Virus record (IMG/VR): IMGVR_UViG_2541047795_000003
Coordinates: 1 to 49,802 of that record
Length of the DNA stretch: 49,802 nucleotides
DNA from: a virus
Taxonomy: Duplodnaviria; Heunggongvirae; Uroviricota; Caudoviricetes
Strand: one strand, 5' to 3'
Of the stretch, positions 3,001-9,000 are shown in pieces. Every line of letters begins with the position of its first letter. Position 1 is the first letter of the stretch. The position numbers were made by a program.

Positions 3001-6000
3001 TCGTAGCGAAGGGCATCAGGCTGTTTGCGCATTGATGCCGAGATACGCTTCCAGTCTTCGCGGTCGTTGTCGATAACTTCATTTTTTGCCCAGCGATGGA
3101 TGCTGCCGTCAATGTTTCCGGCATCCACATCACCAGGCCAGAGAGCGTAGGCCAGTTCGTCATCCAGTGTTTTCCATGTCTGCTTGTATTCGCGATGAAT
3201 GGCAGCAATGACCGGGTTGATTTTTCCTGTTGAATTTTCAGTGTGCTGTTGATTGGCTCTGGCGCGGGCGAGATCAACAACAGACGTGTATTTTCCGGTT
3301 TCCTTGCGTTCATTTTCGCGACGTTTTTTCCAGATGCGCATCTCTGCCTGAATTTCGGGCCATTTGGCACCAGGCTTACATTTATGCTTAACCCACCCGA
3401 TGGCATGCAGCTTAAGCTCCGGATACATGGCGTTAACTTCTGGCATTTTCATCAACGCTTCAACGATATGTCCGTCGAATGTTGCCATGTCTTCCTGCAA
3501 CAATTCCTGCGCGCTAATCACCATATCAACGGTGATGTTTTCACATGTGTCGAACTTAACCATGACAGCGTTCTGTACTTCAGGGGCCAGCTTGTCAAAA
3601 GTGACGTTCATCGGATCTGATTCAGTCTCAACCGGGACAAAGGAAGCAGACGCCTCATCCCAGCGGTTTTCCTGCATATATTCAGCATCCCAGGAATCTA
3701 GGGCAGGGCGGGGTATACCGGGTTTATCCTCGCAGACAAGAAATTTATAAGCGCAGTCCTGAGCAGCCGGATAATGTTCCAGGAATTGCCAGTGAAATTT
3801 TGCGCGGGCGCGACGTTCATCACCGGCTTCAATGGCAGTGGCTACAGCGACGGCACCTTCTTCCTTTATTGCCTGTTCGTCCGGAATGGCGGCGCAAATA
3901 AAGACTTTACTCATTTTGTTTTACCTCATTACAGATTTAAGGGTGAACAAATCCCTGCCATTGCTGGCATATAAAAATGAAACTGGATATTAATTACGGC
4001 GCTGTTTTTAATCCTGCCGGGATTTCGTTATTGTCCATGTGAATAACTTTATCGACCGGATAACAGTTGCCGGGAATTTTCTGTTCCGCTGCGGCAGCCA
4101 TGCATTCTTTCATTGAGTTGTACATGCCGGTGATTGCATCAAGCGACTCACCAGTATTGAGATGTACAGTCAAAATGAGTACGAATAATGTGTTCATCGC
4201 CACTCTCCGAAAATACCGAGTTTAAGAAGGGCAATTCTGGAGAGTATGGAATTGTCATTCAGCAGGTAGGGTTCATATTTTCTCATATTGATTGCATCCT
4301 CGGTGAAATCCCTGTTACTGAGCAGAACACCAATATTAAAGCACCCGTCAGACGTATTAACGTTTGGTAGTGACGTTTCCATTATCGCGTCCTCAACAAT
4401 GAATTTTTAGCAATTGCTCCACAGTCATATTTTTAATTGCGCTCCGGTTTACAAGAGTCCATCCTTGTTTCTCCAGATAAAACCGGAAGGTATCCAGGGT
4501 GCAGACCATTGCGTCGTCAGGAACGGTTTCAGTGAATTTGATATTGCCGTGTTCGTCGAGACGGATAACCAGGGTGCGTCCGTCCCCGTGAATCATTTTG
4601 TCGGGAGACGGGGCGTTATTCTGGCGCAGTTCTGCTTCCATGCGGTCGAACTCAGCAATGTATGCCTCTTTAAATGCAGCGGCTTTTTTGCCAGTGAAGC
4701 CCATCACCAGGAAAACGAAGCCGTTTTTGGTGATTTGGTACATTGGGAGTTTGCGCCCGGTTGAGTCGGTGTATTCGCTTGACACAAAATTGTGCTCAGT
4801 GAATTTTGCTGAACAGTCCAGATTGCGAATTTTATCCAACACTCGTTCGTGGCGTTTGCCAAAGAACTCGGCGATCGCAACAGACGTAGTGACAGCGCGA
4901 CCATTTTCGATGGTTACGTCAGGGTGAGAAAGGGTAAGGATAGTAGCCATGATGGCAGCCTCCGCGATGAATTTGATTAACTCACCACCGAGGTTTTCCA
5001 CGACCATAAGGGTGGTGAGACGTACAGGGGTGGAAATACCGGTCATCACGGAACCCGGCCAGCCTTGCGGCTGCCCTGCACGCCCCACCATAATGCGAAT
5101 GTGGCTGTGCTTAACGCATAAAAAAACCGCCTGAGCGCGGTTATGCGCCGTGAATGATTTCGGGTTTCCACGCCCGGCACCCGTTTTATGAGGTGCAGGT
5201 GCACTATAATTCCACCCGTTCTGGTTTTCAATAGCTACATTCAACATTTTCTCTACCTTTCATCACCGAAGTGAACTTTGTTGATGCGGTGCCTGGTGCC
5301 TCCAGGTGACGTTAACCAGTTAACAATTAACGTCGGATACAGAGCATTCCCGTTACGCCCGTAAAAGACCGCTTGTTTTAACTGTTCCGCGTGCGCTGAG
5401 CCGCATTCACCGCATCACAAAATTCACTTTAAAAAGGGCGGCAGAGCAGTCACGGAGTAGAACTGATACCGCCAAAAGTCACCAGAAAATTGATAACAGA
5501 GGGCGTTGCAGCGGAGTTGTCACTTAAGCGTATGGTCAACCTGACAACCCGGTGTCCTCAACGGGGGAAGGAATAACCCCGCCATACTTACCGCCGCGCC
5601 ATTTCGCGGATTGCCACAACCGGAAGCGCACGGTCGACGAAAATTTAACGACAGGCTATCTATGAACCAGCTACCTCACCGAGCGCTTTCGCGTTATGGT
5701 CTGACTTTTCAGGGAAATATCCTTTCAGTAAACTGTCAGTGCCGGATGCTCACCCGTGTCCGGCGCACGCACTCCACCTCACCCGTGGAGAACTCCTTAA
5801 TCACCAACCCTCAGGAGGGTGAAATGTCGACTGAAAATGATGAAATCATTAACTCCCTGATACGCCAGATTAATAATTTTGATAAAGCATTGCAGCATGC
5901 TGCGGCGCGTAGTGATATAACTCTTTTAGCAATTTCATTTCTTGCATCTGTTATGGATAAAAATGAAGTCGTACGACAGAGTCTTGTTGATTATATCGAC

Positions 6001-9000
6001 TCGCTTCAACCCGGCACTTTCAATCATGAGAGCTTCAATCATGAGAAAGAGCATGTTAAGTCTGTAATTAATTCTCTTATTTTGAATCAAAAGAATTAAT
6101 GCTTTTTGTTGCAAAGTAATTTTCAAGGGGTTCTATTCGAATCCCTTTCTTTTTCATTAACAAGCCAAACCCCTTATCAATGATGTCCATTAGATCCAGG
6201 AAGTATTTTTCATGTAAATCCTGGTTATCAGAGAGCTGCTTCTCTTCGTACAGACCGATAAAGGCACGACGCACGTTACCGGATATAGTATCGATGGTTT
6301 CTTTTTCTACGGTACTCAGGTCAAGAGTCGCCAGTTGGGAACGAACTATATTCGCTGCCATTTCCTGGAATGGCATTGGTAAATCTTTAAATTCCATTAT
6401 TAGCCTCGTTGGTTAGCTATTAACGTGGGTATGTAACCATTCTGGCAATGCTTAATGCCGCTGCTTTTTCCAGCCTGGTGATATCCTGCTCCAGAGCGGA
6501 CAGATTTTCAGCCTGCTTAGTCCTGGCTTCATTGGCCCATTTCAGATCCTGCGCTGCATTAATTTTCTGGCGCATCCACTCATAAAGTTCATCATCGGTA
6601 TAGTCTGGCGCGATGATGACGGGTTCTCGTTTCTGCATACTGATTCCTCGCGGTGCTGTTTCGCTTATCAGCCGTTAGATTTTGCCGAACTGGAAAGCAC
6701 CTGTTTAAATTCGTTGAAGCTGTGAGCTTCTTCGCCTTCGGCAAGGCCTTCGAAGTATTCTTCGTAAGCCTTTTCCATGATTGTGTCAAAATCCATATCA
6801 CTCACCTGAGTTTCTTTCCAGCCAGCGACGGGCACCATTTTCGGTTTTAAACGTTTTGCTTTTGGTATACGTCATTGCGGTGAACGTACCGTCCTGGTTG
6901 GGGAACACGCCACATACCAGAGATTCGCTGTTGCCAAGATCGATAGTATCCATGCTGACCTCATTTCCCCTTAACGCCGGGGTAGCGGAACTAAAAAACT
7001 GCTGCGCTGTTATATAAAGTGTTCCCGCCGTCATGTTCATACGCCTCGGGCTGGCTACTTAACCCCTGACCACTGCCGGGTAACTCGAAGTATTGCCTGG
7101 CGTTCTGTGGGGCGGGGTGGGTTGGTATGAAAAGAAGGATACCCATAGGTATTTAAAAAGTAAATACCCATGGGTAAATTTTTGCGGTGTCTTAACTGGT
7201 GACTAGTTGTTTGGTGAGCTATGATGCGTTTTGTGCTTTCTTTTTACGGATTTCTTCGTAGATCATATTGTAATACTGTTTTTTCTCTTCAAGAGTTTTT
7301 AATAATTTATCCGCTTCACTTTCTGGCAGTTCGTCTAAGAGATCTAAAAAAATACGTTGTCGTGGCGTTAGAACCCTTGTTTCATAACTGGAGGCTGTGT
7401 TCGTTGATGATGAAACGATACCATCCATCCATCCCCGGGGTAACCCAAAGGACTCTTCGATAATCTCCACCATATCATCAGCGATCCGTTTTTTTCCCTT
7501 TTTCCCCTCTGGGTACAACATTCTTGATACATAAGAAGGCTCGCGCCCGATCTTTCTGGCCACGTTAACCGCTTTACCATCGCATTTCTCATCACGAATT
7601 TTGATGAGTTGCTGTCGTCTAAATTCATATTTGTCCATAGGTAAATAATAGATGCGATTACCGCAAGGTAAACAACCTGTGGGTATTGACTTTTGTTTAC
7701 CTGTGGGTATTCTTTGCTGTGTTTACTAAGGAGTAGCTATGGAAGAATTAAGAATATTTCTCAATTCTCTTTCGTCAGATGAACAGCGTATGTTTGCATG
7801 CGAGTGTGGTACCAGCATCGGTTATCTAAGAAAGGCATTGAGTAAAGGTCAAGTGTTAGGGGCATCGTTATGTGTCCTTATTGAGCGAGCCAGTAATGGT
7901 GAAGTTACACGTCAGCAACTAAGGCCTTTTGATTGGATGAATATTTGGCCCGAGCTGGAAGATACCAAAACGTTAACACAACCACTTTCTAGGAGCTTGA
8001 TTCATGAAAATCAAGCATGAACACATCCGCATGGCGATGAATGTCTGGGCGCATCCGGACGGCGAAAAAGTGCCGGCTGCGAAAATTACCAAAGCGTATT
8101 TCGAGCTGGGAATGACGTTCCCGGAACTGTATGACGACAGCCATCCGGAAGCCCTGGCCCGTAATACCCAGAAAATTTTCCGTTGGCTGGATAAAGACAC
8201 CCCTGATGCTGTTGAAAAAATGCAGGCTCTGTTACCGGCGATCGAAAAGGCGATGCCGCCTTTGCTGGTGGCCCGTATGCGCAGCCACAGTTCTGAATAT
8301 TACCGTGAGATCGTCGAACGGAGGGATCGGCTGGTGAAGGATGTCGATGATTTTGTTGCGTCAGCGGTTGTTTTGTATGACCAGATGAATCGCGGCGGCC
8401 CGGCAGGGAATGCTGTGGTGATGCACTAAAAGCACGGTGTTCGGGGGTTTTATGAGCAGCAAGCTTCATGGTCTTGTCTGGGAAGGGTGCGCCTTCACCG
8501 GCATGATCTTATCCAGGGTGGCGGTTATGGCCCGTCTTGCAGACTACAGCAATGACGAGGGCGTGTCATGGCCTGCCATTGAAACTATCCGGCGTCAGAT
8601 CGGTGCAAGAAGTGAATCCACAGTGAAATCGGCTATTGCAGAACTGGCGAAAGAGGGCTGGCTGACGAAGGAAGAGCGTAAGGTCGGTGGGCGTAATGTA
8701 AGCAATATCTATCGGCTTAATGTGGAAAAACTCGAAGCAGCTGCGGCGGCGGCGCGTGAGTCATATAAACCGAAAAGAAAAATTAGCCCGGCAAAAAATG
8801 ACCCGTTAACAGTTGACCCGTCAAATATTGACCCCTCAACGGTTGACCCGTCAAATTTTGATGGATCAACTGTTGATAAAAAACTGCCGATTAGGGGGCC
8901 GATGATTGACCCCGATCCGTCAGTATTAAAACCTGATCCGTCAGATAAAAGATCTTCTTGTCCGGACGCTTCGCAACCGGACCCGCAGACGGCTGAACAG

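Follow-up and report, generated by a model that had tools for sequence, protein, structure and literature searches.

A putative accessory gene next to a mosaic early gene, in a lambdoid cassette slot equivalent to that of sieB

The virus record IMGVR_UViG_2541047795_000003 (Caudoviricetes), of which positions 1 to 49,802 were analysed as a single stretch of 49,802 nucleotides (the window), carries a dicB-type early-left operon in which two small, convergent open reading frames (ORFs) lie between a ydfC homologue and the small RNA (sRNA) DicF. Comparison of this pair, the plus-strand B91 of 91 amino acids (aa) and the minus-strand A of 106 aa, with related loci indicates that B91 is an uncharacterised accessory gene in a sieB-equivalent slot of the lambdoid early-left operon, beside a mosaic early gene. 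A preliminary description of this DNA had correctly placed both ORFs, with their lengths and the 23-bp overlap of their 3′ ends, and had treated them as one AT-rich island. As a unit, this island does not hold together: A is a regular early-operon gene that is also found alone, and B91 is a separate cassette at the 3′ end of A. The main elements are as follows.

5824..6099, plus strand: B91, 91-aa accessory ORF convergent to the dicB-type early-left operon (from ORF listing, conservation and substitution rates)
6077..6397, minus strand: A, 106-aa early-operon ORF (from phrog_6937 and alignments)
6077..6099: convergent 3′ overlap of A and B91, 23 bp (from the sequence)
5810..6399: AT-rich insert of 590 bp, from the ribosome-binding site (RBS) of B91 through the start codon of A

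Both ORFs are genuine, conserved coding genes. B91 was found in 58 IMG/VR contigs, and its frame is intact in all of the 56 loci that could be scored; the sole changes in length are one copy more or fewer of a 15-nt FNHES repeat. The B91 sequences form two clades with 16% divergence in DNA and 21% in protein, and the ratio of nonsynonymous to synonymous substitution rates (dN/dS) in the B91 frame, 0.30, is the lowest among the six frames. At the local base composition, a 90-codon open frame has a chance probability of P = 0.0014. The start codon of B91, an ATG, follows an AGGAGG (5813-5818) with a spacer of 5 nt, just as described before. A starts at an ATG 6 nt after a GAGG, with a gap of 22 nt to ydfC on the same strand, and matches phrog_6937 (E 1.2e-68), its 106 residues aligning with positions 1-106 of the 124-position profile; homologues of A in the protein collection number 234. 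Conservation, the intact frame, dN/dS, the open-frame probability and the profile match of A thus all argue for real genes. The preliminary description had named missing coding conservation in homologous prophages as the outcome that would speak against it, and when this comparison was run, both ORFs proved to be conserved as coding sequence. The RefSeq counterpart of B91 is WP_000102678.1, a hypothetical protein, and at a locus identical to window positions 5400-6700 (E. coli strain Ecol_316, NZ_CP018957.1) RefSeq calls both ORFs hypothetical proteins. In the literature, we found no description of the slot and no mention of the RefSeq protein accessions.

We surveyed the slot downstream of A in 241 IMG/VR loci that were fetched with A and its variants. 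The slot is either empty or filled by one of at least nine, mostly unrelated, ORF types, which always converge on A: B91, B77, B92, B73, B63, B100/B113, B57 and two further types. When eight B types were compared pairwise with hhalign, B91/B92 and B100/B113 were the only related pairs. A common leader and RBS (...GGAGAACTCCTTAATTACCAACC CTCAGGAGGGTGAA) stands 5-6 nt before the start of B91, B77, B92, B73 and B63; among these five types, a relationship was detected between B91 and B92 only. Strain 98E11 and the PPompW phages carry a convergent pair of 77 aa (plus strand) and 135 aa (minus strand), again with a 23-bp overlap, which shares with the window only the RBS of the plus-strand ORF and the first ~55 codons of the minus-strand ORF; the functional phage mEp460_ev081 has a further pair, of 66 and 121 aa. 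The other B types tested fall into PHROG families to which no function is assigned, and this membership marks them as recurrent phage genes. The C-terminal domain of the window A was found together with B91, with the unrelated B73, or without any B. Between the two B91 clades, B91 itself has 84% DNA identity and the adjoining 300 nt of A have 97%. The A-B91 block also sits in two backbones, either beside ydfC or directly beside DUF1391. Together, these data indicate that B91 is an independent accessory gene that is exchanged horizontally and occupies a set position, flanked by A and the DicF leader, and that the A-B91 pair is one allele of a recurrent layout.

Alignment of the K-12 Qin prophage with the window placed the edges of the insert, as the segment missing from K-12 is exactly 5810..6399; the earlier statement that K-12 has no gene here is thus borne out. 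The same holds for its AT-richness, with a GC content of 0.38 (0.381) over 5810-6399 and 0.35 in B91, compared with leader and window values of 0.54 and 0.52; the drop to 0.35-0.40 extends over 5800-6300. The signals in and around the slot, and its two flanking neighbours in the operon, are listed here.

5488..5809 (~320 nt): conserved leader between DicF and the B slot, kept in K-12 and in all B types
5810..5823, plus strand: translation-initiation element CTCAGGAGGGTGAA with the Shine-Dalgarno (SD) sequence AGGAGG at 5813-5818, at the left edge of the insert relative to K-12 and missing from K-12
5706..5734, plus strand: candidate sigma-70 promoter, TTTTCA-17 nt-TAAACT, 8/12 matches, position weight matrix (PWM) score 9.6
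5741-5746 / 5759-5764: GC-rich inverted repeat GCCGGA...TCCGGC, within the DicF leader
5772-5790: second hairpin, CTCCAC...GTGGAG; type II leaders have a different hairpin here
6125..6157, plus strand: terminator-like hairpin and T-run, 25 nt past the B91 stop codon, inside the A coding sequence
5436..5487, minus strand: DicF sRNA (Rfam RF00039, 71.5 bits)
6420..6638, minus strand: ydfC homologue, the upstream operon neighbour of A (phrog_1744, E 2.9e-39; RefSeq annotation ydfC)

The leader ends toward the slot with ...CCTTAATTACCAACC; read on the minus strand, it forms the part of the dicBF precursor described as a "long untranslated region" (PMC5069750). The GC-rich inverted repeat had been counted among the features of the island; it sits in this leader and is kept in K-12 and in every allele examined, and therefore belongs to the backbone outside the island. 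The plus-strand gene had also been described as transcribed into the DicF flank. Instead, it runs away from DicF and is antisense to the precursor upstream of DicF. The plus-strand RNA of 5741-5830 has three hairpins (z = -2.9); the minus-strand leader, 5488-5830, showed no significant excess of RNA structure (z = -0.18). A consensus scan upstream of B91 revealed no promoter of 9/12 or better, and the best PWM score per 630 nt of the window has a median of 7.6 and a 90th percentile of 10.7. Both hexamers of the candidate promoter are kept in the most divergent leader (L304), where the spacer differs. After other B types, a hairpin and T-run comparable to that at 6125..6157 were present in some cases only.

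A itself is a mosaic gene. Its N-terminal domain (MEFKDLP..., ~55 aa) is conserved and is followed by one of at least five exchangeable C-terminal domains, and hhalign detected no similarity among four classes of these C-terminal domains. The N-terminal 55-66 residues are common to phrog_1363, phrog_2151 and phrog_9419. No function is assigned in any of these three families or in phrog_6937, compared with whose 124-aa form the window allele is shorter: a stop codon inside B91 cuts it to 106 aa, other alleles having 109 or 124 aa. In strains EC08, MSB1_8B and EC16, A is present alone, as 124-aa alleles without a plus-strand ORF. The AlphaFold2 (AF2) model of A has three long helices at moderate confidence (predicted local distance difference test, pLDDT, 69), and the only notable Foldseek match in BFVD was a 52-aa protein of phage phi191, which corresponds to the N-terminal domain of A alone. 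A scan of GTDB genomes with the A alignment found two E. albertii loci only and so gave no wider taxonomic sampling. Upstream of A, the minus strand continues with ydfC, a ydfB-like ORF and the DUF1391/ydfA gene, beyond which lie the repressor gene (7219..7638) and then a divergent cro-like gene. Strand, spacing and RBS are consistent with co-transcription of A with the operon, and A would be an ordinary gene of the repressor-controlled early-left operon (ydfA-ydfB-ydfC-A-DicF-...-DicB).

B91 is predicted to be a soluble, acidic four-helix protein. Its AF2 model has four helices at moderate confidence (pLDDT 67), its isoelectric point is 5.4, and its maximum hydropathy (KD19) of 1.43 leaves it without a span that passes the transmembrane threshold. 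Its protein relatives comprise only 15 clusters, all from Escherichia, and an exhaustive phmmer search against 1.84 billion representatives returned close relatives only, plus one match to a repeat protein that was judged spurious. Nothing significant was found in Pfam, NCBIfam and PADLOC scans with A, B91 and six other variants, and PADLOC-DB v2, searched with A, B91 and five other variants, gave sub-threshold noise only (E 0.014 or weaker). Foldseek searches with the A and B91 models gave no match in the Protein Data Bank (PDB) at E <= 1e-3, and sequence-profile searches of the PDB with both proteins likewise gave no match. B91 does show a weak, collinear similarity over its full length to phrog_18692/B92 (hmmscan E 0.022; E 1e-3 and 26.5% identity across 83 aa in a blastp search of 10 sequences; hhalign E 4.8e-4 with a probability of 32%, from shallow alignments), which suggests that the two are distant relatives. 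The phrog_18692 members are uncharacterised 92-aa proteins of Escherichia and Salmonella prophages; they resemble B91 in slot, leader and RBS, and length, and differ in that the neighbouring A has another C-terminal domain. An in-frame upstream extension of B91, of 162 aa from a TTG at 5611 (5611..6099) or up to 188 aa from an ATG elsewhere, was rejected as a gene because B77 reads the same leader in another frame. Some database entries annotate longer B91 forms, of 117-145 aa.

The 23-bp overlap of the preliminary description is correct for the window and is not a fixed feature of the pair. In 21 of 56 loci, one single-nucleotide polymorphism (minus-strand TAA to CAA, which is I86V in B91) lengthens A to 109 aa and the overlap to 32 bp. 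Other cassettes overlap A by 11, 23, 23, 32, 41, 63 or 77 bp, or leave an 80-bp gap. A conserved overlap sequence behind the recurrent 23 bp was considered and rejected, as three overlaps of this length have no sequence in common. Overlap lengths of 2 modulo 3 (2-mod-3) occur in seven of nine types (11, 23, 23, 23/32, 32, 41, 77; binomial estimate P ~0.025). This excess among unrelated convergent pairs (related loci L009-L307) exceeds the chance expectation.

The slot has a counterpart in the Rac prophage of K-12. There, recE, racC, ydaE, kilR (which encodes an FtsZ inhibitor) and the kilS sRNA, all on the minus strand, are followed by sieB on the plus strand and then by ydaF (DUF1391), ydaG and racR on the minus strand, and sieB converges on ydaF with a 4-bp overlap. 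Around the 3′ end of kilS, the sequence is homologous to the DicF flank (NC_000913.3 1418405..1418502, locus L311, versus window 5380..5490). Gene order and flank homology together indicate that the B91 slot is the positional equivalent of Rac sieB. Each of the two genes runs antisense to the early-left operon, with the early genes nearest the repressor on one side and a cell-division inhibitor on the other, and each converges on the upstream early gene and overlaps its 3′ end. The proteins themselves differ, as SieB has 162 aa and B91 91 aa, with no sequence similarity between them and no span in B91 above the transmembrane threshold; the leader upstream of Rac sieB is also largely unlike the DicF leader. 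B91 as a SieB homologue was therefore rejected, since neither a Pfam nor a tblastn match was found: tblastn with Rac SieB over 313 loci hit Rac and lambda only. The lambda homologue lies at ~34497-34946 on the plus strand of J02459, between ral and N and opposite pL. In P22, sieB is one of four prophage-expressed systems and halts macromolecular synthesis in superinfecting phages (PMC10883804). A separate observation concerns the sRNAs at this position: KilS and DicF have a common 3′ flank and terminator stem (…CACAAAATTCACTTTAAAAAGGGCGG…CCGCC) and different bodies, and several IMG/VR loci (L149, L204 and L271) have further sRNA variants at the DicF position, so that the sRNA looks like another exchangeable cassette.

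As an explanation of the whole locus, we propose, with about even confidence, that it holds two separate things: an early gene, A, with an exchanged C-terminal domain, and a moron-like accessory gene, B91, that is made by the repressed prophage. B91 would be transcribed from a weak promoter in the leader, for which 5706-5734 is the candidate; its mRNA would start near 5741 with the GC-rich hairpin at the 5′ end, be translated from the consensus SD sequence and end at or past the hairpin and T-run at 6125-6157. Because it faces against the repressed early operon, B91 would be expressed in the lysogen. Once the prophage is induced, early-left transcription heading for DicF, the Rha-family gene and DicB would cross B91 in antisense and silence it. 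The protein may act by binding another protein; most likely, it would serve the prophage to exclude other phages or to defend against them, or would have some other role in lysogenic conversion. Orientation against a repressed operon, AT-richness, presence or absence between loci and the precedent of sieB all point to such a lysogen-made accessory gene.

Morons, in the sense of Hendrix and Juhala, are extra transcription units between the backbone genes of lambdoid phages. B91 resembles them in being a small, AT-rich single gene that is present or absent between close relatives, is oriented independently of the operon and has a hairpin and T-run past its stop codon. It differs in that the cassette carries no promoter, that its 3′ end overlaps the neighbouring gene with no intergenic gap, and that the terminator-like hairpin is part of that neighbour, A. 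The preliminary suggestion of a self-contained moron therefore fits B91, given its presence and absence, AT-richness, counter-operon orientation and sieB position, and does not fit the island as a whole. Several observations weigh against expression of B91 in the lysogen and an exclusion role. B91 has no strong promoter, and the best candidate, with 8/12 matches, scores within the normal range of the window. The left edge of the cassette is the RBS, so that any B promoter must sit in the shared leader; this leader is likewise kept where nothing fills the slot, as in K-12, so its conservation may reflect the processing of DicF from the opposite strand. The terminator-like element at 6125-6157 also occurs in A alleles without B91 and is accordingly not specific to the cassette. 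Finally, B91 showed no similarity to SieB or to PADLOC, Pfam or NCBIfam families, no transmembrane segment and no structural match.

Alternatively, A and B could be a cognate pair, either a toxin with its antitoxin or an effector with its antidote, in the manner of SieB and Esc of P22, with B as the exclusion effector of the lysogen, the C-terminal domain of induced A as its neutraliser and A without B as an orphan antidote. The two genes physically overlap, each B type in the sample goes with one class of A C-terminal domain, and the homologous B100 and B113 stand beside A C-terminal domains that share the motif YHETMVKALR; the variable block, moreover, consists of the A C-terminus plus B, and 2-mod-3 overlaps recur across the slot types. 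Linkage of A and B would, however, be expected from the overlap anyway, and one and the same A C-terminal domain is paired with B91 in some loci and with the unrelated B73 in others, and elsewhere lacks a B. Nor do the two genes co-diverge, as the near-constant A DNA beside B91 proteins 21% apart shows, and the probably homologous B91 and B92 have A partners whose C-terminal domains have no detectable similarity. No toxin-antitoxin (TA) or defence family was matched, and the layout is not that of a type II TA system: A and B91 converge, A occurs without B, and Pfam, NCBIfam and PADLOC revealed no toxin or antitoxin domain. We therefore regard a cognate pair as unlikely. Its boldest form would make the slot a hypervariable arsenal of lysogen-expressed exclusion proteins (B91, B92, B77, B73, B63, B66, B100/113 and B57, and SieB in Rac), each with the A C-terminal domain as a matching self-antidote like Esc for SieB; upon induction, A would neutralise the exclusion protein of its own prophage, and A alleles that stand alone would counter the defences of other prophages. 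This we consider very improbable.

That the plus-strand unit acts mainly as RNA, the protein being secondary, also seems rather improbable to us. Such an RNA, in line with the regulatory role raised in the preliminary description, would dampen leaky or induced expression of the toxic DicF and DicB, through transcriptional interference or through RNase III cleavage of a duplex. The unit is indeed antisense to the precursor immediately upstream of DicF, and its orientation is invariant over all slot occupants. Expression of DicF or DicB is toxic, and RNase E and RNase III mature DicF from a long transcript (PMC5069750), which would suit this route. A consensus SD sequence, intact ORFs and purifying selection nevertheless point to a protein product, the occupants are wholly different in sequence and length and may be absent while DicF and DicB stay, and no convincing promoter emerged from the scans. 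The lack of a convincing promoter, the moderate confidence of the structure model and the narrow spread (15 protein clusters, in Escherichia prophages only) could also mean that B91 is an annotated ORF that is not expressed, a decaying remnant or a chance frame at a mosaic junction, with A as the only functional gene. Against this stand a frame that is uninterrupted in all 56 scored loci, which span two clades of 84% DNA identity, and that has the lowest dN/dS of the six frames, and the low probability of such a frame from composition (P = 0.0014). A consensus SD sequence and spacing common to four other slot ORF types, and a probable full-length distant homologue, phrog_18692/B92, in the same slot, make an unexpressed ORF highly doubtful as well.

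Other elements of the same operon deserve mention. Between the repressor and DUF1391 genes, on the minus strand at 7140..7176, lies a terminator-like palindrome with a 16-bp stem (TACCCATGGGTATTTAC…); it falls in the early-left promoter/operator region and may be of operator type instead of a terminator. Between DicF and dicB, where K-12 is empty, the minus strand carries an antirepressor module of the P1/Gifsy type (4393..5247). Its RNAs, at 5008..5095, 5120..5196 and 5157..5209 (minus strand), include a C4 antisense RNA (81.9 bits), an isrK sRNA (67.7 bits) and a sub-threshold match to the c4 a1/b1 target, and the 5′ part of a gene for a 284-aa Ash and Rha-family protein overlaps them. The module appears as a second, RNA-controlled immunity/antirepressor circuit within the dicB operon. 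Directly downstream of DicF, a partial, sub-threshold STnc100 match (35.6 bits) was found at 5277..5424 (minus strand). Elsewhere in the window, two full copies of the STnc100 sRNA (19721..19914 and 20190..20378, plus strand; 138 and 132 bits) score well over the gathering threshold, just downstream of adjacent genes for tRNA-Met (CAT) and tRNA-Arg (TCG) at 19298..19457 (plus strand). Inside the prophage there is also a sok antitoxin RNA of the hok/sok-type type I TA system, at 14598..14769 (plus strand; 106.7 bits).

A segment of the window is matched by 4,592 of 5,426 complete E. coli genomes, and 138 of the 5,426 hold at least 80% of 5400-6700, a fairly narrow distribution. Most E. coli genomes thus carry prophages of the DicF/DicB type. 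In many of them, the stretch ahead of DicF known as the "long untranslated region" turns out to be a defined slot with a fixed leader and RBS, into which phages swap small, mostly unrelated genes that run counter to the operon. The main value of the comparison lies in this fixed-leader cassette slot, which could be mined, along with a tidy comparative-genomic account of two hypothetical genes. The slot may also be relevant to the way in which the toxic DicF and DicB are held back when their expression leaks. If its proteins are exclusion or defence factors, the slot would be a genomic address at which to find new ones, as are the hotspots of P2- and P4-like elements.

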